A stretch of 64,000 nucleotides of DNA from Clostridia bacterium. Lineage in GTDB: Bacteria > Bacillota > Clostridia > Christensenellales > CAG-138. This document shows positions 9,029-32,057 of the stretch, in pieces; position 1 is the stretch's first letter, and each line of letters starts with the position of its first letter. A program made the position numbers and the translations under genes. The notes below the pieces were generated by a model, which searched no databases, was not told the DNA's origin, and was given only the letters and a program-made list of their open reading frames with translations. The stretch spans positions 5,597-69,596 of the forward strand of contig JAGACA010000013.1 of assembly GCA_017614315.1 (NCBI GenBank), written 5' to 3'.

Positions 9029-9142
9029 TGTCCCTCCCGCGCCGTGAAGGCGCGCCGTCATTCGGGTATTGCCCCCGAAAAAATTAAATATATTATAGCA
9101 CGGGCGACCCCGTTTAACAATACCAAATTGTTTTTTTCGCGG

Positions 9143-11236
9143 TCAAGGTATCCTGTAAAGCGTCGTGCCGCCCTCGTGCCAAACGACCTCGTATCTTCTG
9201 AAATACGCCGTATCGACGCTGTACGAGCCGCGTTCCCAGGTGCTTATAAGCACGTAATCGACGCCGTATTCCTCGGCGTAACGTTCGAAAAACTCGCCGG
9301 GCTCCTCGTACATCTTTTTTACCCTGTCGTACCTTTCGCCGTAGTTCACGCCGTGGAAATAGAGGAAAGTCGGCGCGCCGCATACGATGCTGCGTCCGGT
9401 GAGCATCGCGACGGCGTTGTTGTGATTGGTCGCCGTCAGGAAAACCGCGTCGGGCTCGGCGTTTTCGTTGATCCAGTCGGTCAGCCTTTTGAGCTCGGCG
9501 GAAACGACCTGATAGCCGTTCTCCTCATATTTCAGCTTGGCGTTCACATGGTCGGCGGAGACGTATTCGCGGGCGAGCGTCATCGAGCCCGAAAGGAGCA
9601 TCGAGAAAATGAGCCCCGCGAAAACGAGCCCGTACGCGAGCCGTTTTATTAACGGCGACCTCTTCTCGACGATCCCGCCGCCGTCCGGCGAGAGCGTCTT
9701 TTCGGTGCGGAGCCTGTGCCATGTGTCGGCGATGAACTCCGCGTCAATGCCGCAGGTGAGCGCGAACCACACGAACAGGAGCTTGTTATTGTCGTAGGTG
9801 TTAGGCTGGAACACGACGAATTCGCAGAGCAGCCATATCACGAACGTGCCGCCGTAGAAGAGCTTCGTTTCCTTCTTTGCCGCGATGAACGCGGGGATCA
9901 TAAGCAGGAATATGAAACCCATGTTCTTAATATAGAACCAGAGCCACGAATCGGACTGGTTGCACCAGTTGAAATGCCATTTGAGGAAGCCGCCCGCTGA
10001 GGACTGTCGGAACGTGAACCCGAAAAGCTGCGGCGCGGCAAGCGCCACGGCGATGAGGCCGTAGTACACGAAGAACAGCAGCGTCTTTTTGCCCTGTTTT
10101 TTCTCCTCCGCGTCCTTGCACAGAAACTGACCTGCGCCGAGGGCGATTATGAGGAAGAGGCTGATGAGCCCGAGCGCAAAGAAGCTGTGCGTGTGCACGA
10201 GGGGCATGGCTCCCGCGAGTATGCCGAGGGGGATGAACAGCCTGTATTCCTTACCCAGCGCGGCGCGCCTCAAGAGCCCGAGCGCGGGGAACAGGAGCGC
10301 CCAGCCGAAAAGCGTCGCCCTTTGGGGGATGAGCATGTCGGCAATGGTGTTTACCCATCTTAAGCCGTTGTCGACGAAGTTGGTCGGCGTCTTGTACCAG
10401 CCCTCGAGGAGCATCTTTTCCATATCGACGGTCGGCGAGCCGCTTACCGTGACGCGGAAGCCGAGCGTTTCGCGGATCCAGTTGGCCCAGTCGCCGCCCG
10501 CGCTCAGGCTCTCGAAGGTCTTGGCGTGATCGAAGAAATACCAGAAGCCGAAGCCGCCGCCCACGAAGAACAGCCATGTGCCGAGCACGGCGGCGGAGTT
10601 CTTTTTGAACCATTCCTCGAAGAGCATGTAAACGCCGGTGACGACGCAGACGAGCGCGTACACCGACGGGAGTATCACGGCAAAACGGAGCGACGCGCCG
10701 AGCGTATAGAACGTGGAGCTCACGCTGTCGCAGAGGAAGGGATAGCCGAGCTGCGTATCCGGAAGTATCGAATACATCGGCGGGAAGGTCTTCTGCACCG
10801 AAATGCTGGTGATGAAGCCGAGATGCATGCAGAGGTCGCCGTAAGTGCACTGCCCGACGTGGAGCGAGCCGTCCGAGGCGGCGACGATGTTATGATTCAG
10901 CATGAGCACCGTGCCGACGAAAATTATGGGCAGCACGGTCAAAAGGAACGCGCATTCCTCCTTGAGCTTGAATTTGCCGGTGCGCGCGCGCTTCCTGCCG
11001 AGCACGGCGAATAGGACGCCTGCCGCGGCGGCAACGGCGAGCGCGAGGAGCTGGGCGAGGAGCGTGAATCCTATCGCGAACGCAAAAAGCACCGGCAGCC
11101 ACATGAGCATCGCAAGCCCGAACGCAAGCCCCATGACCGTCTGCCGGGTAAGGCGGTCGTCGGGGAGAGCGAATCTCGCCGCCGAGAAGCCCGCCAGCGC
11201 GAATATAAGAATGTAGAGTACGGAAAGAAGGTTCAA
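9143..11236 (-). CDS. polytopic membrane protein, probable GT-C fold glycosyltransferase
   Basis: About 13 TM segments, an external loop YGDLCMH...FPP...GYPF, a PQRA motif, and a soluble C-terminal domain (WINEN...LTGR...YGVDYVL) like DUF2298/STT3-type GT-C proteins. Confidence 0.65.
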   Translation of the reverse strand: MNLLSVLYILIFALAGFSAARFALPDDRLTRQTVMGLAFGLAMLMWLPVLFAFAIGFTLLAQLLALAVAAAAGVLFAVLGRKRARTGKFKLKEECAFLLTVLPIIFVGTVLMLNHNIVAASDGSLHVGQCTYGDLCMHLGFITSISVQKTFPPMYSILPDTQLGYPFLCDSVSSTFYTLGASLRFAVILPSVYALVCVVTGVYMLFEEWFKKNSAAVLGTWLFFVGGGFGFWYFFDHAKTFESLSAGGDWANWIRETLGFRVTVSGSPTVDMEKMLLEGWYKTPTNFVDNGLRWVNTIADMLIPQRATLFGWALLFPALGLLRRAALGKEYRLFIPLGILAGAMPLVHTHSFFALGLISLFLIIALGAGQFLCKDAEEKKQGKKTLLFFVYYGLIAVALAAPQLFGFTFRQSSAGGFLKWHFNWCNQSDSWLWFYIKNMGFIFLLMIPAFIAAKKETKLFYGGTFVIWLLCEFVVFQPNTYDNNKLLFVWFALTCGIDAEFIADTWHRLRTEKTLSPDGGGIVEKRSPLIKRLAYGLVFAGLIFSMLLSGSMTLAREYVSADHVNAKLKYEENGYQVVSAELKRLTDWINENAEPDAVFLTATNHNNAVAMLTGRSIVCGAPTFLYFHGVNYGERYDRVKKMYEEPGEFFERYAEEYGVDYVLISTWERGSYSVDTAYFRRYEVVWHEGGTTLYRIP

Positions 11237-11251
11237 TTATCCGCCCACCTT

Positions 11252-11788
11252 TCAAGCGAAAGCTCTAAACCGTTCAAAGGGCAGTATCAAAATGCGCGCG
11301 GCGCCGTAGACCTCGGAATAGGGGAAGATGAAGCGTTCGGGATCGAGCACGCCCGAACGGTCGTCGGGAAGCAGAAGCAGCGAGCCCTCGGGGATCGTCA
11401 CGCTGAAATCGACGCCTTCGCTCCACGAGCCGCCGTAGGCGCTCTCGTCGATGAGCGCGCCGTCAAGGTACGCCCTGCCGTTCCTAACGGTGTATTCCTG
11501 ACCGCCGGCCGCGGCGCAGCGCAGGAAGAACACGCCCTCCTCCGTCCTTGCGTTCAGCACGTCGCCGAGCTCGTAATCGACGAAGAACCTCGACACCCTG
11601 TCGACCAGCACGACGTCTCCCTCCTTAAGCTCCTTCACGCTGTCCGCGCCGACTTCGCAGGGGACGAGCGCGAAGCGGAAAAGAAGGAAGACGATGAGTA
11701 CGGAGACCACGAGCACGACCGCAACGTCGGCGGCGCGCCACAGGTATGAGTCCGTTCTCGTATAGGTGCTTCTGACCGTGTAATCCAT
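11252..11788 (-). CDS. signal peptidase I-like protein lacking the catalytic Lys
   Basis: S26 architecture (TM, GDVVLVDR, YLDG..IDE, VTIPEG), but box D reads FFLRC instead of VKRI and box E reads PDDRSGVLD instead of GDNRxxSxDSR. Confidence 0.75.
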   Translation of the reverse strand: MDYTVRSTYTRTDSYLWRAADVAVVLVVSVLIVFLLFRFALVPCEVGADSVKELKEGDVVLVDRVSRFFVDYELGDVLNARTEEGVFFLRCAAAGGQEYTVRNGRAYLDGALIDESAYGGSWSEGVDFSVTIPEGSLLLLPDDRSGVLDPERFIFPYSEVYGAARILILPFERFRAFA

Positions 11789-12438
11789 CAGCTGACTTTC
11801 CTTATGTTCTTAAACGGGAATACGACCCCGTGCACGCGGCCGATGACGTACGAAAGCGGTATCGCGCCGACCACGCGGGAGTCCTGGGAATTGGTGCGGT
11901 GATCGCCCATGACGAATATGCAGCCCTCGGGAACGGTGAAAACGCCGTCCTCCGCACCCTCGCAGGTGATCCTGTTATATCTGGTTATGCTGTCGATCAG
12001 CATGGTGTCTTCATACGCGGATTCGTCGAGCGGCTCTCCGTCGACGTACACCCGCATGACCGCCCCGGAGGACGACGCCTCGTTGGATACCTTCCTGACC
12101 TCGACGGTCTGCCCGGCGGTCGCGACTATGCGCTTGACGAACGCCTCGTTCTCCCTGCCGGGGAAGTGGATTATGACTATGTCTCCCTGCTTGGGAGAGG
12201 CGAACAGATAGCCTATCTTTTCGACGAAGCAGCGCTCTCCGTTCTGGAGGGTGTTCTGCATGGACGGGCCCTCCACGCGGACGGGCTCGAAAGCGAACGC
12301 CCTCACGGCGAGCATTATGAGCACCAGCCACATGAGGAACCTTAAAAAATCGACGTTGCCCGCCGACCTGAAGCCGGGTTCCTTATCGTGCAGAGCTTCC
12401 GAAAGCTTAAGCGTTTTTTTTGCGTTACCGTCCATCAT
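11788..12438 (-). CDS. lepB: signal peptidase I
   Basis: GPSMQNTL (Ser), FVKRIVA (Lys) and MGDHRTNSQDSR boxes intact. Confidence 0.95.
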   Translation of the reverse strand: MMDGNAKKTLKLSEALHDKEPGFRSAGNVDFLRFLMWLVLIMLAVRAFAFEPVRVEGPSMQNTLQNGERCFVEKIGYLFASPKQGDIVIIHFPGRENEAFVKRIVATAGQTVEVRKVSNEASSSGAVMRVYVDGEPLDESAYEDTMLIDSITRYNRITCEGAEDGVFTVPEGCIFVMGDHRTNSQDSRVVGAIPLSYVIGRVHGVVFPFKNIRKVS

Positions 12439-12625
12439 CTTCTCCTTTGAGCATCTTTGCCGCCCTCAGAAAGTCGCCCCTATCGAGCATTACCGTCCGC
12501 CCGCAGAAGACGCATTTTATCTTTACGTCGGCGCCCGTCCTCGTGATCTCCCATTCGTTGGCGCCGCAGGCGTGCGGCTTGCGCATTATCACGCGGTCTC
12601 CGACCTTGAAATCGTTGGATATCAT
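12425..12625 (-). CDS. DUF951 family small protein
   Basis: MRKPHACGANEWEITRTGADVKIKC..CGR signature. Confidence 0.9.
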   Translation of the reverse strand: MISNDFKVGDRVIMRKPHACGANEWEITRTGADVKIKCVFCGRTVMLDRGDFLRAAKMLKGEDDGR

Positions 12626-12629
12626 CCGA

Positions 12630-14612
12630 TCAATTGCCTCCGACCCATCTTAAGAAGAAATACAGCGCGGCGCCCTTCAGCGCGGCAATATGATCGTCGC
12701 CGCAGGTGTAGAGCGTCATGAACCTATCCTCGAGCACGACCTGTACCTCGTATCCGAGCTGGTTCCGTTCGAGCTGATACATGATCCATTCGAGCTTCTG
12801 CTCGTCGGTCTTCCTGTCGTAGGTGAGGGGCCAGTTGAGGTTGTAGAGCCTCGAAGACATGTACTCGTTCGGGAACGCGCCCTCCTCGTACATCGCCCAT
12901 ACCTCCCACCAGCCGCTTTCGCCGTAAACGTTTATGTACCAGACGCGGTTCTCGTAATCGTTCAGCGTCTCGCTCCTGTCCTGAATAACGTGGAGCTCGT
13001 GGAACATGGTTCCGGTCGGGCGCGAGTTATGCCCCGCGATGACTATATTGCCTGTGGGCTTCTCATAGAAGTACGATATGCAGCCCCTTGCCAGTGTCTT
13101 TCTGTCTATGCCGTGATACTGATAAAAGAAATCGTCGCCGTAGAGTATCGGATAGCAGATATTGGTGTCGGGGAGCTCAATGTATCCCGTCGCGTCGGGG
13201 TTTATGCGGCGGGCGACCGCAAGAGGCGTCGTGTACTTGTCCGTCTTGGCGTACTGGTCTATCGCGCCGCCGGACTGCGCTTCCTTGAGAATGAGCTCGA
13301 TGTCGCTGACGTCGATCGATCCGGGCAGCTCCTCGTCCACTATTATGTTCGCGGCGCGCAGGTACGCTCCTTCGAGCGGCGCGGAACCGTCGGCGTGCGC
13401 CTTCGCGGCGTCGACATCCGAAAGATCTATCACGCCGTCGCCGTTCACGTCGCCCAAAAGCACGCATACCGCCTCGCGGGAAGCGCCCGTCGCGGGATCG
13501 AAATAAGTCGTGATCTGACCGGTATGGACGGGTTCGCCGTCCATCTCGGATCCGGGCTGAAGCCCGAGGAGCCAGCCCTCGTCGGTCACGTACGGCAGGA
13601 GCCGCCACCAGCCGACCGTGAGCCTCAGATCGCGGTCCTCACCGAAGCCCTCCGCTCGGCCGCTGCCGTAAAGCACCACCGCGTGCTCTCTGCCCGCAGC
13701 GACGAAGTAGACGTCCTCGACCCCGTATGGAACGAACGGCGCGTCGGTCACGAGGGTCCCTCCCAATGTAACGGCGTACGTCGCGCCCTCCGCGGCGAAC
13801 ACCTTTATGAGATCGTTTCGGAAGAAGGGCTCCTTCTCCTCGCCGGTCGAAATATCGTAAGTCCTGACCTTTCCGTCCTCGCCGAGCGCCGCGAGGTGAT
13901 CGGGAGCGGCGGCGATCGCCACGACGCGGTGCGCGTTGACGGCGTCGTCGAATTCCGCGCCCAGCGTGGTCTTCACGCCGAGCCAGTCGGTCAGCCCCGC
14001 GGTATAGCTGCCCGCGGCATCGATCATGACGACACGCTTCCACGAAGAGACCTCCGCGCCGGCGCCTTCGCCCGCGGAAACGAGCGTGCCGTCGGCCTTA
14101 AGCCCCACGATATGCGCGTCTCCGAGCTTGATATCGACTATATCCGTCCACTCCTCCGCCTCGGGGAACGGGTTGACCGCGCCCGCGCCGGTGAAGAGGA
14201 GCGTCCCGTCGCCGGTGAGAGCTATCGTTCCCAGATCGTTTGTCGCGACCCTTCTTACGTCGGCCCAGCCGCGGATGTAATTCTGCCCGGCGGTCGGCCT
14301 GCCTATGAACCGGATCGAGCCGTCGTCGGCCACGCCGAAGGTGCCGTGCTCGTCGGTGACGAGGAATGCGTCCCTTCCGGGGATCTCATTACAAACGAAG
14401 TCGGGCAGTATGGGCTCGGGAGTAACGGGGATCTCGGTCGGCGCCGACGTCGGAGCCAATGTCGTCGCGGGCGTGTCGGTGACTTCAGGCAGCTCTTCCG
14501 GAGCCTTCTTTTCCCTGACCTTCGGCAGTACGACGAACCACACGACCGCTATCGCCGCGGCAAGCGCGGCGAGCGCCGATATCTTGATGATATAGCCCTT
14601 TTTCGTTCGCAT
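12630..14612 (-). CDS. membrane-anchored RCC1-like repeat / dockerin / class B sortase fusion protein
   Basis: N-terminal TM, Pro/Thr linker, repeats of type W.D...I..G..H...L..DG, dockerin loop GDVNGDGVIDLSD, and sortase-B motifs (NPD..GYI.LPDTNI.YP, IAGHN, MFHEL, TLYTC); ATG at 14612 with a GGAG RBS. Confidence 0.8.
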   Translation of the reverse strand: MRTKKGYIIKISALAALAAAIAVVWFVVLPKVREKKAPEELPEVTDTPATTLAPTSAPTEIPVTPEPILPDFVCNEIPGRDAFLVTDEHGTFGVADDGSIRFIGRPTAGQNYIRGWADVRRVATNDLGTIALTGDGTLLFTGAGAVNPFPEAEEWTDIVDIKLGDAHIVGLKADGTLVSAGEGAGAEVSSWKRVVMIDAAGSYTAGLTDWLGVKTTLGAEFDDAVNAHRVVAIAAAPDHLAALGEDGKVRTYDISTGEEKEPFFRNDLIKVFAAEGATYAVTLGGTLVTDAPFVPYGVEDVYFVAAGREHAVVLYGSGRAEGFGEDRDLRLTVGWWRLLPYVTDEGWLLGLQPGSEMDGEPVHTGQITTYFDPATGASREAVCVLLGDVNGDGVIDLSDVDAAKAHADGSAPLEGAYLRAANIIVDEELPGSIDVSDIELILKEAQSGGAIDQYAKTDKYTTPLAVARRINPDATGYIELPDTNICYPILYGDDFFYQYHGIDRKTLARGCISYFYEKPTGNIVIAGHNSRPTGTMFHELHVIQDRSETLNDYENRVWYINVYGESGWWEVWAMYEEGAFPNEYMSSRLYNLNWPLTYDRKTDEQKLEWIMYQLERNQLGYEVQVVLEDRFMTLYTCGDDHIAALKGAALYFFLRWVGGN

Positions 14613-14718
14613 TTTCCCGTCTCCGTTCGAAAATATCATACCGAGTTTATCATACCATAAATACACAAAAAAATAAAGAGGCGAATAATATTTTATCCGC
14701 CCCGGCATGTTTCCCGTT

Positions 14719-15483
14719 TCAGTTTCCTATGGGTATCTGCGCCCGCGCCCGCGCCGTTTCCGCGGGATCGACCGCGACGTTCACAACGGTCTCGTTTATG
14801 CCGGCGTTCGCGATCACCCGTCCCCATGGATCGACCGCGATGGAGTTCGCGTATGAGACATAGGAAGCGTCCGTGTTCCGCGAAGGAGCGCAGCCGAAAG
14901 CGAACATCTGGCTGTCGACTGCGCGCGCCCTGAAAAGAAGCTCCCAGTGCATAGGACCGGTCGTCATATTGAACGCCGCCGGGACGAAGAGCATATCCGC
15001 CCTCATGTCGTTAACGAAGCTCGAAAAGCGGACGTCGAAGCAGACGCACACCCCCGCCTTTCCGAACGGCGTTGGGAACACCGTCGCCGAACCGCCCGCG
15101 GAAAGCGTGTCGGACTCGCGGAAGCTCTGTCCGCCCTCGACGTTTATGTCGAAAAGATGCGCCTTACGGTGACGCGCGATAAGCCCGCCGTCTTTCCCGA
15201 AGACAAAGCAGGTGTTGTAGATCCTGCCTCCGTCCGATTCCGGCATGCTGCCGCCGATCAGTACGGCATTCCTCTTCGCTGCGATACCGGAAAGCGCCTC
15301 CGTGACCCTTTCCCCGAAGGGCTCCGCGTTCTTCACGAACGAAGCCGCGTCGTAGGGACAGCAGAACATCTCGGGCAGCATTATAAAGTCCGCGCCGTCC
15401 GACCTTTCGGAAAGCGCCTCCGCGCGGGCGAGGTTTTCGAGCTTGTCTTCCGTGACGGAAGACTGTATCAGCGAAACGATCAT
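14719..15483 (-). CDS. carbon-nitrogen hydrolase (nitrilase/omega-amidase family)
   Basis: Glu-Lys-Cys triad (LPEMF, HRKAHLFD, VCFDVRF), plus PAAFNMTTGPMHW and RARAVD. Confidence 0.92.
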   Translation of the reverse strand: MIVSLIQSSVTEDKLENLARAEALSERSDGADFIMLPEMFCCPYDAASFVKNAEPFGERVTEALSGIAAKRNAVLIGGSMPESDGGRIYNTCFVFGKDGGLIARHRKAHLFDINVEGGQSFRESDTLSAGGSATVFPTPFGKAGVCVCFDVRFSSFVNDMRADMLFVPAAFNMTTGPMHWELLFRARAVDSQMFAFGCAPSRNTDASYVSYANSIAVDPWGRVIANAGINETVVNVAVDPAETARARAQIPIGN

Positions 15484-16217
15484 TTTCCCCCTCCGATCCT
15501 GTAATAAACATAGCTTGCGTCCCGCTTCTCGCGCCGCAGCGCGCCTGCGGACATGATCGACCTCGCCATCGCGCCGGCAACGCGGTTGGGTATGCCGAGC
15601 GCCTTTTCGAGCTCCTTTACCGTGAAGCCGTCGAGCCCGTCGGGAAGCAGCATCAGCCAGTCCGCGCTCTCCGCGAATACGCGCTCGTCGGCGAGCGCCG
15701 TCGGAACGAGCTCGAATTTATCGTAGCCCTTGTCGCGGAACCGCCTTTTCGGCTCCCTTTTCACGCGGTATTCGTCCGCGTCGATCACGGGCACGACGAT
15801 CATGAGGTTTTTGTCGGAGAGCCTTTTTCTAATATGCATCAGCTCGAAGAACAGGCTCTCGATCCTGCCCTTTTTGGGCGAGCTCCTCGGCTTCGTCATC
15901 TCGCCCGTTTCGGGATCGAGATAGATTATCCTCTTGTTCCGTATCAAGGGGCAGACGAGCGTAACGGGGTATTCCCCGAGGAACACCCCGAGCTTGCGGT
16001 CGATATGGAAGAAGCTTCCGGTCTGTATCTCGGTTACTCCGTCCGCGTTGAGTATGTCCGCGAAAAAGCCGCAAAGCTCCGCTTCGTGCTTCGTTTCGTC
16101 CGGCTCGTAATAGTATTTGAGAGCGCTGTGCAGGGTCTTTTCGGCAAGCGTGCCTATGCCGCCCGACTCCCTCGCCTTCGCGCGCTCCACCGCTTTTCGA
16201 AAGGCTTCCGTATCCAT
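15480..16217 (-). CDS. conserved hypothetical protein with a PD-(D/E)XK-like nuclease motif and a C-terminal winged-helix-like tail
   Basis: H..LK...E...ADI....EIQT pattern; stop overlaps the nitrilase start (ATGA); probable leaderless start. Confidence 0.55.
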   Translation of the reverse strand: MDTEAFRKAVERAKARESGGIGTLAEKTLHSALKYYYEPDETKHEAELCGFFADILNADGVTEIQTGSFFHIDRKLGVFLGEYPVTLVCPLIRNKRIIYLDPETGEMTKPRSSPKKGRIESLFFELMHIRKRLSDKNLMIVVPVIDADEYRVKREPKRRFRDKGYDKFELVPTALADERVFAESADWLMLLPDGLDGFTVKELEKALGIPNRVAGAMARSIMSAGALRREKRDASYVYYRIGGGK

Positions 16218-16276
16218 GTAAGAATAATACCATACCCGCCGACGCAATTCAATCCGGATCGTGTCCGTCAAAACTT

Positions 16277-27543: not shown

Positions 27544-28098
27544 TTACTCTCTTTCCGCCGCGGCGGTCAGGAGATCGCCGTTTTCCTTGAGCCATTTATT
27601 GTGTTTGCGGTATTCGGGGAAGACGCGGAGCACCTCGTTATAGAACGCCCGCGAATGATCCATCACCCTGCGGTGGCAGAGCTCGTGCACGACGACGCTG
27701 TCCACGACCTCGTCGGGAGCGAGCATTAAAAGACTGTTGAATGTGAGGTCACCCTTCGACGTACAGCTTCCCCAGCGGGTCTTCATACGGCGGATCGTGA
27801 TCCTGCCGAACGTTACGCCGACGAGCGGGGCGTAGTGCCTGGCGCGTTCGGGTATGACCTCCTCCGCGCGCTTTTTGAGCGCCGAAAGCTCCGCGTCGGT
27901 CAGCCGCCTTACGCCGGCCTTCGCCTTCTCGCGCTCGCGGGCCTTTTCAAGATGCTTCCCGATCCTGTCCGCGTTCTCGTCAAGGAACAAACGTATCTCC
28001 CTTTCGGAGGCGCGTCTCGGCGCGCGCACGATCAGCCTGCCGTCCTTTATCTGCGCCGCTATCGTCCTGCGGTCGGAGCGGATAAGCTCATATTCCAT
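27544..28098 (-). CDS. YgjP/DUF45 (SprT-like) zinc metalloprotein
   Basis: RWGSC, VVVHELCH (HExxH) and H...FY motifs. Confidence 0.9.
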   Translation of the reverse strand: MEYELIRSDRRTIAAQIKDGRLIVRAPRRASEREIRLFLDENADRIGKHLEKAREREKAKAGVRRLTDAELSALKKRAEEVIPERARHYAPLVGVTFGRITIRRMKTRWGSCTSKGDLTFNSLLMLAPDEVVDSVVVHELCHRRVMDHSRAFYNEVLRVFPEYRKHNKWLKENGDLLTAAAERE

Positions 28099-28342
28099 CG
28101 ACGATCTCTCCGTGAACGCATACACGCCCGCCGTCGGGGCATTTGACGTCGAACGCCTTCGCCGAGGCCTCGCCGCAGTCGAGCGACGCGCCGTTCAAAA
28201 GCGCGAAGACGCAGGGATACGCGGCGTTCCAGAGCTCGTGGCAGAGAGGCGGGCAGATATCCTCCACGATGAACTCGTCGCCTTTTTTGTGATAGCCGCA
28301 TCTGCATGCGCTTTCGGTAACGGTCAGCTTGACTTTCGGCAT
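28088..28342 (-). CDS. TIGR04076 family Cys-rich small protein
   Basis: CRCG.HK.GD.F, CPPLC.ELW...YP and CPDG. Confidence 0.8.
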   Translation of the reverse strand: MPKVKLTVTESACRCGYHKKGDEFIVEDICPPLCHELWNAAYPCVFALLNGASLDCGEASAKAFDVKCPDGGRVCVHGEIVDGI

Positions 28343-28373
28343 GAGTGGGATCCTTTCTTTACCGCTTGTTTAC

Positions 28374-29009
28374 TCATTCCCCGTCGTATAAGCTCATTTC
28401 GTCGACCCAGACGGGGTCGTTTTTGATCCTGCCGTTCTCGGATCTGCATTTGGGACAGACCGCCTGACGGCTCGTGTATCTCGCGCCGCACCTCGAGCAT
28501 CGGTATACGGCCTTTCCGAAAAGATGTTCCTCCTTATACCATATTCCCGTCCTGCGCGATCTGCGGTCCTCGATCCTGTTGGTTATGCTGTAAGCCTTTG
28601 AAACGGGCTTCGTTTCGACTATCCTGTATCTGCTTTTGTCCTTGTATCTTTTTCTCAAAGCCCGTCTTTCGTCCCTGTCGGTGACGGCGTCGGCGTACCC
28701 GTTCGCCGTTTTTACTCTCTTGACGGAGATATCTATCGGGATGCGCATGTCGGCAGCCCTTTGTGCGGAGCTTTCCCCGATAATCGCCTTGCGGATGACC
28801 TTCTTCGTCTTGTCGAGGGGATAAGGAACGTTCTTTTTCTCATATACGCCGACGTGTGTGACGATCGCCGCCTTTTCCTCCGCGCCCGCCGGTACGATCA
28901 CCCGGTCGTTCACGCGGATGCTCCTGTCGTTCGTGCGGTAGCAGTAAAAGTGTCTTCCTCCCGGAAAACAGACGAAAACGTATATGTATTTCCTGCCGAA
29001 TAAGCCCAT
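28374..29009 (-). CDS. hypothetical protein with a C-terminal zinc ribbon
   Basis: RBS AAGGAGG; CSRC...CPKC; N-terminal small beta-domain (Y.Y...D....GD.V.VP.G). Confidence 0.7.
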   Translation of the reverse strand: MGLFGRKYIYVFVCFPGGRHFYCYRTNDRSIRVNDRVIVPAGAEEKAAIVTHVGVYEKKNVPYPLDKTKKVIRKAIIGESSAQRAADMRIPIDISVKRVKTANGYADAVTDRDERRALRKRYKDKSRYRIVETKPVSKAYSITNRIEDRRSRRTGIWYKEEHLFGKAVYRCSRCGARYTSRQAVCPKCRSENGRIKNDPVWVDEMSLYDGE

Positions 29010-29117
29010 GCCGTTCCTCCTTTTTGATTATACACTATCGCGGCGGATCGTCATAGACAAATTTCGGTACTCAAATCGTCCGCAGGAAAATATATTATCG
29101 GATCGGCTGCGGCAAGG

Positions 29118-29410
29118 GCAGATGGAGAGATTTGCTTCTCCGCCCTTCGAATCTCCTCATTAATAAAACAACCCGTTTCAGTCCTGTTGGGCTGAAACGG
29201 GTTGGTGCAGATGGAGAGATTCGGTTTTTCGCGCATCGGGTCTCGAAGCCGGCTCACACCGCAGCCTTCTCGCCCTGCAACGAAAAACACGGGGCGGGCA
29301 AATCATCCACCGGATGATTTGCTTCTCCGCCCTTCGAATCTCCTCATTAATAAAACAACCCGTTTCAGTCCTGTTGGGCTGAAACGGGTTGGTGCAGATG
29401 ACCTGATTCG
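29118..29410. repeat. tRNA-linked tandem repeat, 187-bp period
   Basis: 29129-29213 is identical to 29316-29400; copies of the tRNA-Leu 3' end at about 29118-29132, 29203-29223 and 29390-29410. Confidence 0.9.
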
Positions 29411-30650
29411 CTGTCAAAAAAGCCTTGATTTTACACTGCTTTTTCAGATGCCGTGTGCAACCGGTGTGCAACGGAAGATGATCCAACTTAACTCAAGCTA
29501 TTCTTTATTCGGTCATTCATGGAATATTCGAAATCTAGGAAATAAAAAAGGCGGGAGGTCTCGCATCGTAAAAATGCAAACCCTCCCGCCAAAGTTTTTT
29601 CGAGTGTCAATTACCCGGCTGTTTTAAGAAGCTTGATGAAAAGTTTATGTCTCCGGATCACTCCGGGCCATGCGACATTGCTTCGTTCCTTGATACGCCC
29701 GAAGGCGAGGAGGCGGATATGAAAAAACAAGATGCATATCAAACGGTGCATTATCTTGTGATGAGTTTAGGAGGATAGAATTGACCAAATAAGGGCTCGT
29801 CAGAGGTAGTTATATGAACAAGATTACAGATATAACCAGAAGGGATATAATAGATATTATCAACAACGGGTTTATCGAACAATTGGATGGCCCGGTTTAT
29901 GATAATGAAAAAGGGGCTTTTGTTACTGAAAGAGCTATTTTCATGCCGTTCTATGGTCGGCTTGATGAGATCGGCTTCTTCTCGAGGCTGTATGATTTGA
30001 CTACATTGCCTTCATACGACCATAGGTATCATGATGCCTTGGGAGACATCAAATGTCACCTTGGTTGGGGAGACTATGAAAAAGGTTGGTTTTTTCATGA
30101 TCGAAGATTCAAGCTGCTTCCGGAAAATGGCGACGAGCCTCTCCTTAACTTTATCTGTGAAATGCTGCACCCAGCCGTACGTGCCACAAATTCTCCATGG
30201 AAGCTATACTTGGAAAAGTTTAACGAATTGCTGCGTGCTGACGGTTATGAGATATATGCTGCTCAGCATATATCTGGAAGGGATGTTTTCAAGGCAAGGC
30301 CCTATACGCCGTTAGAAACTCAATTGCTGCCGGACAACCTTTTCACAGAGCGTTATAAAGAACTGATAATCATTGGCGAAGGAGTGGCGGCGATTACCTA
30401 TTTGACGATTGTATCCGCATTTTTACTGTTGAAGTTTCAGATCGCAGAAGCCAAAAACTTTTCCATTGCTACAAGAAAATCTGCTCCGAGCCCGTGTGCA
30501 ACCGGTGTGCAACGCATACGACTTTTAACATTCTCAAGCCGATTCAAGTCGAAATACCGAGCTTCAAAAAAGCCTTATGATCATTGGATTTTAGGCGTTT
30601 TGAGAAAAGAAAGATCCGGGTTAAGAAAACCCGGATTTTGGTGCAGATGG
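29390..30650. mobile_element. integrase-less mini-island/remnant inserted at the tRNA-Leu 3' end
   Basis: Abrupt AT-rich segment flanked by TGGTGCAGATG direct repeats, with an identical 23-bp CCGTGTGCAACCGGTGTGCAACG at 29451 and 30492. Confidence 0.7.
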
Positions 30651-30689
30651 AGAGATTCGAACTCTCAAGCTTTCGCCGACGGATTTTAA
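29814..30689 (+). pseudogene. truncated AbiJ N-terminal-domain-like protein; the ORF tail reads through the att region
   Basis: ITDITRRDI...GRLDE..F.SRLYDL..LPS.D.R...A.GDI..H...F.CE.LHP.VR...N..L..DG.E pattern; after about 30380 the ORF runs over the arm site and antisense into the tRNA. Confidence 0.65.
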
Positions 30690-30721
30690 GTCCGTTGTGT
30701 ATGCCGTTCCACCACATCTGC
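30639..30721 (-). tRNA. tRNA-Leu(UAA)
   Basis: GCAGATG acceptor stem, ACGGA-CTTAAAA-TCCGT anticodon arm, long variable arm, GAGAG-TTCGAAT-CTCTC T arm and an encoded CCA. Confidence 0.97.
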
Positions 30722-30730
30722 GTCCCGGTA

Positions 30731-30759
30731 ATTATACAACGGATCGGTTACTCCGTCAA
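30731..30759 (-). promoter_or_regulatory. sigma70 promoter of tRNA-Leu
   Basis: TTGACG-17 nt-TATAAT on the minus strand. Confidence 0.8.
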
Positions 30760-30773
30760 CCGCAATTATCTTT

Positions 30774-32057
30774 TTAAATCACGCGATCGGTGATGCAGTC
30801 GTACCAGTGCACGTACGTTTCGCCGTTGATCGTGAGCGTTTCGTTCTCCGGATACATCTCGTTCCAAAGCTTTCCGAAGCTTTCGACGCGCCAGTCGTTT
30901 TTGTTGAAGCGGCGCCAGAGCACCGTCCTGCCGGTCGTGTCGATATACTGCTCGGTCGCTACGCCGTCGCCGCAGTAATCCTCGACGTCCATAACGCATA
31001 TCGTGTCGTAGGTCTTTCCGCTGATCGTGACTGAGTACCTGCCGACCACGTCGATGAGCTGCTTTTTGTCCTTAGCGGACACGGCGCTGCCGTTCCTCGT
31101 GATGTCGCCCTTCGGGGCTATATCGGTCTCGTTGCCGCAGTTGTCCTCGCCGAATCCCCAGTTGTTGAGGAATTCATCGCCGTCCAGGAAGGTGTGATAC
31201 TTCATGACGCCTCCCTCCTCGTGGGCTTCCGCGAGCATGCGGCAGTGCGTGGCGGTGAGCTGAGCGACGAAACGGCGCTCGTTGTAACTGCGGTCGTCGA
31301 TGCGGTTGTTCTCCATGGGCTCATATTCCTTCGCGAGTATGGAAACGCCCTCGACGCCGTGCACTTCGGCGCGGCCTGTGACCTCCTCGGTCACGTATTC
31401 GGCGCGGTTCCTCTTGGGGAAATCGTACATCGCCCATTCGAGCTTTTCCCCAAGCTTCGGGACTATGAACCAACCCATTACCTCCTCCCACTTGACCCTG
31501 AAGGGGGCTTTGTCCGTGGGCTTTATCGTGTATTCGGGCATTGTTTCGGGCATCTTCGTTAACATGTTTTTCACTCCTTTCGGCGGGTAGGGATAAAGTT
31601 TTTCAAAATGCTTCCTGGCCGAGCTCAGCCTGCTCTTGACCGTGCCTTCGGCTATGCCGAGCTTCTTCGCGATCTCGGGGATCTTCATGTCCTCAAAGTA
31701 ATGAAACCTCAGTATCTCGCGGTCGCCGGACGAGAGCTCCTCGAGCGTTTCCATGACGGGCGACGCGCCGATCAGTCCGACGCGGCTCATCGTGAGCTCG
31801 TTCTCCGGTACGGAGTCGATCGGAACCTCGTCGGTGCGCTTCCTGTAAAAGTCCGCGCATTTGTGACGGGCTATGCCGATGATCCATATGCGGAACCGTT
31901 CCGTATCCATGGTCGGGTCGAATCCGCGGAACGCGGCCAGCCTGACCTCCTGCAGAACGTCGTCGGCGTCGTGCCTGCCGCTTATTTTGAACCTTACGAA
32001 CCTTGTAAGCGCGGGATCGATCAGCTCGAGCATTTCCTCAAACGTCATCCTTTCCAC
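30774..32057 (-). CDS. ECF sigma-70 factor with a soluble C-terminal extension of about 260 aa
   Basis: Region 2 (DADDVLQEV, WIIGIARHKCADFYRK) and region 4 (EIAKKLGIAEGTVKSRLSSAR), followed by an unknown domain. Confidence 0.88.
   Translation of the reverse strand: MERMTFEEMLELIDPALTRFVRFKISGRHDADDVLQEVRLAAFRGFDPTMDTERFRIWIIGIARHKCADFYRKRTDEVPIDSVPENELTMSRVGLIGASPVMETLEELSSGDREILRFHYFEDMKIPEIAKKLGIAEGTVKSRLSSARKHFEKLYPYPPKGVKNMLTKMPETMPEYTIKPTDKAPFRVKWEEVMGWFIVPKLGEKLEWAMYDFPKRNRAEYVTEEVTGRAEVHGVEGVSILAKEYEPMENNRIDDRSYNERRFVAQLTATHCRMLAEAHEEGGVMKYHTFLDGDEFLNNWGFGEDNCGNETDIAPKGDITRNGSAVSAKDKKQLIDVVGRYSVTISGKTYDTICVMDVEDYCGDGVATEQYIDTTGRTVLWRRFNKNDWRVESFGKLWNEMYPENETLTINGETYVHWYDCITDRVI

Follow-up and report, generated by a model that had tools for sequence, protein, structure and literature searches.

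In the FCT pilus loci of Streptococcus pyogenes, a membrane-anchored protein with the S26 peptidase fold that lacks the catalytic dyad lies near a class-B-fold sortase (SipA/LepA; 4n31, 4k8w). Passages of PMC4049620 describe SipA as an inactive signal peptidase homolog working with a class B-type sortase, in line with PMC3019223 and with the initial annotation of the locus studied here, and as a dead S26 protein that is needed for sortase-driven pilus assembly and has Asp and Gly at the two dyad sites. A second arrangement is documented for the actinobacterial sortase SrtA of Actinomyces, in which sortase, signal peptidase and a small membrane partner, SafA, are genetically linked; the part of PMC9282373 that treats it describes cleavage of the sortase anchor by a LepB-type enzyme and its blockage by the neighboring membrane protein SafA. 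Here we compare with these systems five co-directional minus-strand genes that span positions 9143-14612 in an open reading frame (ORF) listing of a 64,000-nucleotide stretch of DNA, hereafter the window, from a Clostridia bacterium (Christensenellales, CAG-138; GCA_017614315.1, contig JAGACA010000013.1, positions 5,597 to 69,596 of the forward strand). The genes encode a sortase fusion, a small DUF951 protein, a signal peptidase I (LepB), a second and catalytically dead S26 paralog, and a polytopic membrane protein of the GT-C glycosyltransferase type. The initial annotation knew of no earlier description of this combination, and we likewise found no account of it in the literature searched, supplements lying outside the scope of that search.

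The components of the cluster are known kinds of protein in new variants. On balance, we judge it more likely than not that they form a clade-specific, probably co-transcribed envelope operon in which two genes were added to an older, order-wide core of DUF951, lepB and, often, a second lepB. The 178-aa paralog of that core carries a membrane anchor and the S26 fold (Pfam Peptidase_S26, 31.9 bits; TIGR02227, 47.3 bits with a cut-off of 47), with S50 at the Ser column, L89 at the Lys column and a degenerate box E (PDDR...). A catalytic Lys together with a conserved nucleophile Ser, the mark of signal peptidase I, is not found in this protein. In its orthologs within the genus, the Ser column shows S/R/N/T/N and the Lys column L/L/F/Y/Y; among its relatives overall the Lys column reads L/L/F/Y/Y/G/G and the Ser column is unconserved. 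Gly/Gly is the most frequent state of the dyad columns across the genera that encode it, so that the residues at these sites vary, in contrast to the Asp and Gly given for SipA in the passages cited above. The single sequence finds no meaningful match in the PDB, whereas a profile of the dead clade matches canonical signal peptidase I (4nv4, 1.7e-13) better than SipA (4n31, 1.2e-6).

In a tree of 127 S26 sequences, the 37 dead sequences group in a single clade (SH-aLRT 97) that covers 16 genera and sits beside active "last-copy" lepB paralogs of other genera. This placement fits a single loss of the Ser/Lys dyad in the second lepB copy of an ancestor of many genera, and it gives the clade an origin separate from that of SipA, nested among the family's own second lepB copies. 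With a dN/dS of 0.24 and reading frames intact over the 16 genera, the dead peptidase is, as judged from sequence comparison, kept under purifying selection as a membrane-anchored pseudoenzyme of the S26 fold. When a collection of 5.8 billion proteins was searched, 37 of the 38 best clusters lacked the Ser, the Lys or both, and a gap in score separated them from ordinary signal peptidases. The relatives nevertheless carry the name "signal peptidase I" in public records, because a score such as 47.3 bits just clears the TIGR02227 cut-off; the label is likely a systematic mis-annotation of the dead clade. A predicted complex of LepB and the dead peptidase scored 0.01 (mark, 0.32), which is evidence neither way. 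In all genera inspected, the dead peptidase is encoded 3' of DUF951-lepB.

The adjoining LepB is catalytically complete by sequence, with S59, K102, a GDxRxxSxDSR box, boxes B-E and an N-terminal membrane anchor (Peptidase_S26, 143.6 bits; TIGR02227, 133.9 bits against the same cut-off). S59, K102 and the GDHRTNSQDSR segment are invariant or conserved across all 17 aligned orthologs. The Pfam and NCBIfam models and the catalytic columns (K102 versus L89) thus agree with the initial assignment of DUF951, an intact signal peptidase and a paralog without the catalytic Lys. Since LepB is the sole full-length S26 match in the draft genome (91% complete), it is the general housekeeping signal peptidase of the cell and not a dedicated enzyme. 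Its dN/dS is 0.11, and that of the neighbors ranges from 0.06 to 0.17. DUF951 (PF06107, 84.3 bits against a gathering cut-off of 25) is Cys-rich and has no predicted signal or membrane segment; neither a function for it nor a fusion of RCC1 repeats to a sortase was found in the searched literature, supplements again excepted.

DUF951 lies directly 5' of lepB throughout the family and in three further families of the order. One to three S26 genes come after DUF951 at nearly all of about 70 family loci and in the same three families, while the flanks of this core vary among housekeeping genes (alpha/beta hydrolase, MscS, metG, FloA, thiamin pyrophosphokinase, HAD). A wider claim, that DUF951-lepB is a class-wide pair, was dropped: none of 30 DUF951 loci in other families of the class has an S26 gene within 1.5 kb. 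The DUF951-lepB-(dead lepB) core is the conserved unit of the cluster and the one under long-term selection.

The fusion and GT-C genes have a different distribution. All five genes are contiguous in 12 of the 14 genomes of the window's genus; of the two exceptions, one has the locus interrupted by contig ends and the other is without the fusion. In the latter, the CN-hydrolase gene is followed directly by DUF951, the other four genes are kept, and the fusion is absent from the whole assembly (locus L025). Flanking genes are collinear too within this genus, so contiguity there says little by itself. Both genomes of the sister genus g38 also keep the five genes contiguous, and there the flanking malQ/glgP have moved. 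In a third genus, g32, the GT-C gene follows DUF951-lepB-dead lepB in three of seven genomes, in one of which the fusion lies convergent after it, and one further genome has the GT-C gene and fusion as a convergent pair apart from the peptidase cluster. Both peptidase trees group the three genera in a starred clade. In all other genera examined, the core, the fusion and the GT-C gene lie apart. Eleven GT-C loci from other genera or families have no peptidase, DUF951 or sortase gene within the stretch inspected, up to 9 kb on each side (one locus is only 2.4 kb long), their neighbors being tyrS, UPF0029, a DUF11-repeat protein, DUF2461, other unrelated genes and, once, GtrA. Among the best 80 GT-C loci species-wide, 5 adjoin the peptidase cluster and 73 are near none of the window's genes; some genera with the dead peptidase have no GT-C gene, and the fusion stands alone at 16 of 20 fusion loci outside the window's genus. 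The fusion and GT-C genes are, from this distribution, apparently later additions, joined to the core only in the window's genus, g38 and part of g32. Their lasting linkage in this sub-clade leaves room for a functional tie there.

These comparisons also bear on the view that the five genes have no functional relation, having been packed together by chance in small genomes (1.4-2.4 Mb), and that the dead peptidase is a decaying relic. Equally tight packing does occur elsewhere, as in the run FloA, DUF951, lepB, dead lepB, thiamin pyrophosphokinase and HAD, and the collinear flanks in the window's genus are what such packing would give. We nonetheless regard this view as very improbable: the dead peptidase evolves at a dN/dS of 0.24 as one clade with intact frames over 16 genera, and the five-gene block outlived the rearrangement of its flanks in g38.

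The first added gene encodes a protein whose structure model (pLDDT 87) begins with an N-terminal membrane helix (residues 5-28) and a disordered Pro/Thr-rich linker, followed by an RCC1-like β-propeller (residues ~80-360), a dockerin-like pair of EF-hands (~380-450) and a domain with the class B sortase fold (~460-660). Pfam scores are 36.7 bits for RCC1_2 and 27.9 bits for Sortase (cut-off 26.6). The best Foldseek match is SrtB of Clostridium perfringens (5b23; target-normalized TM 0.83, rmsd 2.8 over 199 columns); SrtB of Staphylococcus aureus, Bacillus anthracis, Listeria monocytogenes and C. difficile and Spy0129 also match (target-normalized TM 0.65-0.83), and all sortases among the matches listed are class B. 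The propeller matches UVR8, BLIP-II and RCC1. A profile of 22 fusion homologs likewise retrieves SrtB (5e-19), RCC1/BLIP-II and a dockerin structure (3.4e-5) from the PDB. The dockerin model PF00404 itself scores only 14.9 bits on the fusion, with half the model covered, and has a precomputed match in 4 of 39 homologs. The fusion is thus predicted by its model to be a membrane-anchored extracellular protein that combines a propeller, a dockerin-like module and the class B sortase fold. RCC1-sortase fusions were found in 19 of 50 sampled genera of the family.

Like the class B sortases of S. aureus, B. anthracis, C. perfringens and C. difficile and Spy0129, the fusion has the fold, an N-terminal anchor and the His and Cys motifs; H528 of its GHN motif and C637 of its TxxTC motif line up with the corresponding residues of solved SrtB structures. 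In contrast to them, it has ~430 extra residues between anchor and catalytic domain, falls far under the NCBIfam class B equivalog cut-off (39.3 bits against 153.75), has no cognate substrate nearby, and carries Ala in place of the catalytic Arg (A649, at the start of the last strand), a residue equated with the Arg of solved SrtB by motif position rather than by superposition. Arg is present in 25 of 29 full-length fusion homologs, as part of a G-[A/S/G]-R-[L/I]-Y motif where the last strand begins, and in all listed stand-alone sortase-domain orthologs from sister genera; Ala is common to the window's fusion and its three closest 90%-identity clusters. The initial call of a sortase B fusion therefore stands for the fold, the His and the Cys, and not for an intact His-Cys-Arg triad. 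Between this genome and its nearest relative, the sortase domain is nonetheless under the strongest constraint, with a dN/dS of 0.23 compared with 0.37 in the propeller and 0.67 in the anchor and linker.

Sortase-domain orthologs in other genera adjoin lysS/greA or cysS, and these positions suggest a conserved housekeeping placement of the sortase clade in sister genera. Among loci of sister genera (L051, L054, L055, L056 and L057), sortase-domain genes occur in several genera as tandem pairs after cysS and a small basic protein, the members of a pair differing in N-terminal extension (363-658 aa); single copies come after dus-greA-lysS in others.

The second added gene encodes a 697-aa protein that matches no Pfam or NCBIfam model at threshold, with only sub-threshold scores for Dpy19 and DUF6798. 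Its structure model (pLDDT 84, pTM 0.87) has 26 Foldseek matches at E<=0.001, all of them GT-C enzymes, and VIA-align places residues 86-697 on residues 6-683 of yeast STT3 (Z 20.9, rmsd 5.0 over 464 residues), in keeping with the GT-C-like membrane enzyme proposed initially. Alignments to ArnT, AftA and DPY19 give Z scores of 18.3, 16.9 and 16.4, and the C-terminal ~120 residues match the globular domain of AglB (3vu0_C; Z 10.8, rmsd 2.5 over 112 residues). Sequence identity is 9-14% to oligosaccharyltransferases and 7-14% to the compared GT-C enzymes overall. Modeling thus indicates a polytopic enzyme of the GT-C fold. With STT3/AglB/PglB, ArnT, DPY19, PMT and AftA (GT-C_A) it shares the GT-C architecture. 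A candidate catalytic Asp, D134, is invariant in 20 of 20 sequences of its family and falls where the STT3 alignment places the first outer loop, a correspondence at the level of alignment range and not of residue superposition. It differs from STT3/AglB/PglB in that its first 85 residues form three extra N-terminal helices ahead of the STT3-like core. A WWDYG-type motif belongs to the C-terminal domain of the STT3/AglB/PglB oligosaccharyltransferases; none was seen by eye in the C-terminal 120 residues of the 697-aa protein.

The family of this GT-C protein has no Pfam model and no name in the protein atlas. In a one-genome-per-species collection, 568 of 599 candidate stretches encode relatives, whose record titles name Christensenellaceae, Oscillospiraceae, Lachnospiraceae and unclassified metagenome-assembled genomes of Clostridia. 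At one locus from another family of the order (L019, genome G032), an overlapping 721-aa ORF without a Pfam match precedes the GT-C homolog, and a gene of the GtrA family lies 3' of it; GtrA is the usual companion of polyprenyl-phosphate-sugar pathways.

Whether the dead peptidase and the fusion belong together can be read from their distribution in the sample of 50 genera, with the status of the peptidase taken from the alignment columns at the cluster. Both are present in 15 genera and neither in 22; the remainder comprises 4 genera with the fusion and no dead peptidase at the cluster, 6 with the dead peptidase and no RCC1 fusion, and 3 in which the state is ambiguous. The association is positive and tracks phylogeny. 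An independent-pair test on a proxy tree of DUF951 and LepB (277 columns) found four pairs on supported branches (p = 1) and has no power. Because each occurs without the other, the two are not an obligate pair.

The initial annotation had proposed a dedicated module for surface proteins, and in its full form this would be an assembly line in which selected surface proteins would be cleaved by LepB, held by the dead peptidase in the manner proposed for SipA, linked by the fusion and glycosylated by the GT-C enzyme. The idea is attractive, unproven and partly contradicted, and we hold it to be unlikely. It gains from the tight operon spacing, from the retention of the cluster in the window's genus and in g38 despite flank rearrangement (and in part in g32), and from the 15 genera with both dead peptidase and fusion; the site of action of all products save DUF951 is the outer face of the membrane, and the SipA passages in PMC4049620 supply a precedent for a dead S26 protein in sortase-driven pilus assembly. 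Against it, LepB is the sole full S26 enzyme of the genome and hence not dedicated, DUF951 lacks a signal or membrane segment, and the sortase Arg column is Ala in this species. The parts also occur apart: the fusion and the dead peptidase are each found alone (in 4 and 6 genera), the independent-pair test does not help, one genome of the window's genus has no fusion, and some genera with the dead peptidase have no GT-C gene.

The search for substrates bears on the same proposal. The initial annotation saw no pilin or sorting-signal protein in the window, and we found none in the draft genome either, its ~91% completeness leaving the absence of substrates unproven by such scans. Genome-wide scans for a hydrophobic tail preceded by an LPXTG-, NPxTG-, SPxTG- or LAxTG-like signal yielded no credible substrate, a result that counts against a dedicated line; a class B sortase would be expected to have a cognate substrate with an NP(Q/K)(T/S)(N/G/S)-type signal, as a rule encoded close by. 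Two matches with motif and hydrophobic tail were rejected, one being a cytoplasmic GGDEF-EAL protein and the other an antisense ORF. No motif ahead of the membrane segment is common to the proteins that end in such a segment and a Lys/Arg tail. A SipA-like pilus module is disfavored because there are no pilins or sorting signals, a single full S26 enzyme, and a dead peptidase and fusion that are separable. The SipA analogy holds for the fold and for dyad loss near a class-B-fold sortase, and fails for descent, for gene context, as the dead peptidase follows DUF951-lepB and is not encoded between pilin genes, and for substrates.

Besides the fusion, the genome holds three more sortase genes. 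Two, at C2:95643-96512 and C16:73340-74098 of the draft genome, lie in near-duplicate loci that resemble conjugative elements, with NlpC/P60-like and VirB4-like neighbors as judged by end sequences; each is near a surface protein of 1080 or 1097 aa with a signal peptide, a C-terminal membrane segment and no LPXTG. The third is a chromosomal stand-alone sortase (C18:40007-40768) 3 kb from a membrane-anchored RCC1-repeat protein (553 aa, C18:43935-45596), so RCC1 propeller and sortase also exist as separate neighboring genes in this genome.

The cohesin scan suggested initially did return matches: the 1.7-Mb genome encodes a cohesin-dockerin system of four cohesin modules in two proteins and 17 dockerin proteins above cut-off. 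One of the two, of 540 aa, has three cohesins and a membrane segment at its C-terminus, with a basic tail (C5:113293-114915); the other, of 279 aa, has a single cohesin (C6:43134-43973), and its gene is directly followed by one for a small dockerin protein. These scaffoldins of the cell may be docking sites for the dockerin-like module of the fusion. A maturation line could be built on this, in which the dead peptidase would take over proteins exported by LepB and hold them while the fusion and GT-C enzyme link or glycosylate them onto a cohesin-dockerin surface complex; we consider it quite unlikely.

SafA offers another model for the dead peptidase, that of a signal peptidase antagonist which, by analogy, would protect uncleaved signal-anchors, be it that of the fusion or those of further anchored exoproteins, against LepB. 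That a LepB-type enzyme cleaves a sortase anchor, and that a neighboring membrane protein can block this, is documented in the portion of PMC9282373 noted above. At its N-terminus the fusion carries a long helix (residues 5-28), and a non-catalytic S26 fold that bears a cleft is encoded between lepB and membrane-anchored partners. SafA, in contrast, is a small protein of an unrelated family and not of the S26 fold, and the dead peptidase is present in six genera without the fusion; such an antagonist seems highly unlikely to us.

The anatomy of the locus (Table 1) fits a single five-gene transcription unit with possible read-through into malQ and glgP, which lie downstream, also on the minus strand, after a gap of 81 bp between the GT-C gene and malQ. 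From first gene to last, the spacings are 4, -14, -1 and 15 bp, in agreement with the small gaps and overlaps first noted. We infer the unit from these spacings, from the hairpin, -10-like element and ribosome-binding site upstream, and from the layout of the downstream gap. The upstream CN-hydrolase gene ends at 14719 and the terminator-like hairpin comes just past its stop; the hairpin is likely the 5' boundary of the transcription unit. An alternative 692-aa reading of the fusion, from 14708, would cross it. The promoter consensus scan listed no promoter directly 5' of the fusion gene, and the matches in the gap between the GT-C gene and malQ are a possible separate start for malQ-glgP.

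Table 1. Genes and putative signals of the five-gene locus (window coordinates)
Feature	Position	Strand	Description and evidence
Sortase fusion	12630-14612	minus	660 aa, counted from second ATG
DUF951 small protein	12425-12625	minus	66 aa; Pfam PF06107
Signal peptidase I (LepB)	11788-12438	minus	216 aa; Pfam, NCBIfam, catalytic columns
Dead peptidase paralog (pseudo-signal-peptidase)	11252-11788	minus	178 aa; S26 fold, dyad-column alignment, tree
GT-C-fold glycosyltransferase (predicted)	9143-11236	minus	697 aa; structure model, Foldseek, VIA-align
Terminator-like hairpin and T-run	14678-14703	minus	11-bp stem with 5 G-C pairs, then TTTATTTTTT
Extended -10-like element, TGGTATGAT	14657-14649	minus	read by eye; unscored by promoter consensus scan
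GGAG ribosome-binding site	14624-14621	minus	ahead of fusion ATG at 14612; read by eye
Two overlapping sigma-70-like promoter matches	9092-9146	minus	10/12 and 9/12, both with TG extension

Two further features of the window lie outside the cluster. A 263-aa ORF without a Pfam or NCBIfam match (15480-16271) lies 5' of the CN-hydrolase gene, and the two are kept together in the genus at 53-82% identity. Positions 28000-32000 have a low GC content (0.51-0.52 versus ~0.59) and may be an acquired island; they encode a protein with an AbiJ N-terminal domain (29814-30689), an ORF without a family match (28374-29009) and a 427-aa protein whose N-terminus holds sigma-70 regions 2 and 4 (30774-32057).

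In the clade-specific operon that we favor, the dead peptidase has most likely retained the ability to bind signal peptides or freshly exported chains, and beside LepB it would act as a non-catalytic holder or regulator for general secretion rather than for the sortase. The GT-C enzyme would transfer a sugar from a polyprenyl-phosphate donor to an acceptor at the outer face of the membrane. The five products would share a compartment, and probably a transcript, in the window's genus and g38, which does not imply shared substrates. Several points weigh against a reading in which the additions are loosely tied. The five-gene block is intact in g38 despite its rearranged flanks, and the fusion and GT-C genes are still neighbors, in a different orientation, in two g32 genomes; this linkage exceeds chance packing and fits some selection for the cluster. 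The dead peptidase and fusion also tend to co-occur, with only 10 genera having one alone. The holder or regulator role is itself a proposal without direct support, and co-transcription is probable from gene anatomy.

Relative to the literature searched, with its supplements set aside, a family-wide pseudo-signal-peptidase after lepB, a sortase fusion with RCC1 and dockerin-like modules, and an STT3-like GT-C family appear to be new. Because the dead clade is named "signal peptidase I" in public records, annotation pipelines overcount active signal peptidases in these bacteria, and a GT-C family without a Pfam model is present at more than 560 loci across Clostridia. The loss of the sortase Arg in one sub-lineage, together with what appears from substitution rates to be continued purifying selection, may serve as a natural experiment on a sortase fold without this residue. 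Should the dead peptidase work with LepB or the fusion, the S26 fold would have been recruited a second time, independently, as a secretion helper without catalysis, and such a case would be useful for understanding how SipA acts. Were the maturation line true, then in small-genome gut Clostridia that have no canonical LPXTG substrates a SipA-like principle would have been reinvented outside pili and joined to protein glycosylation.

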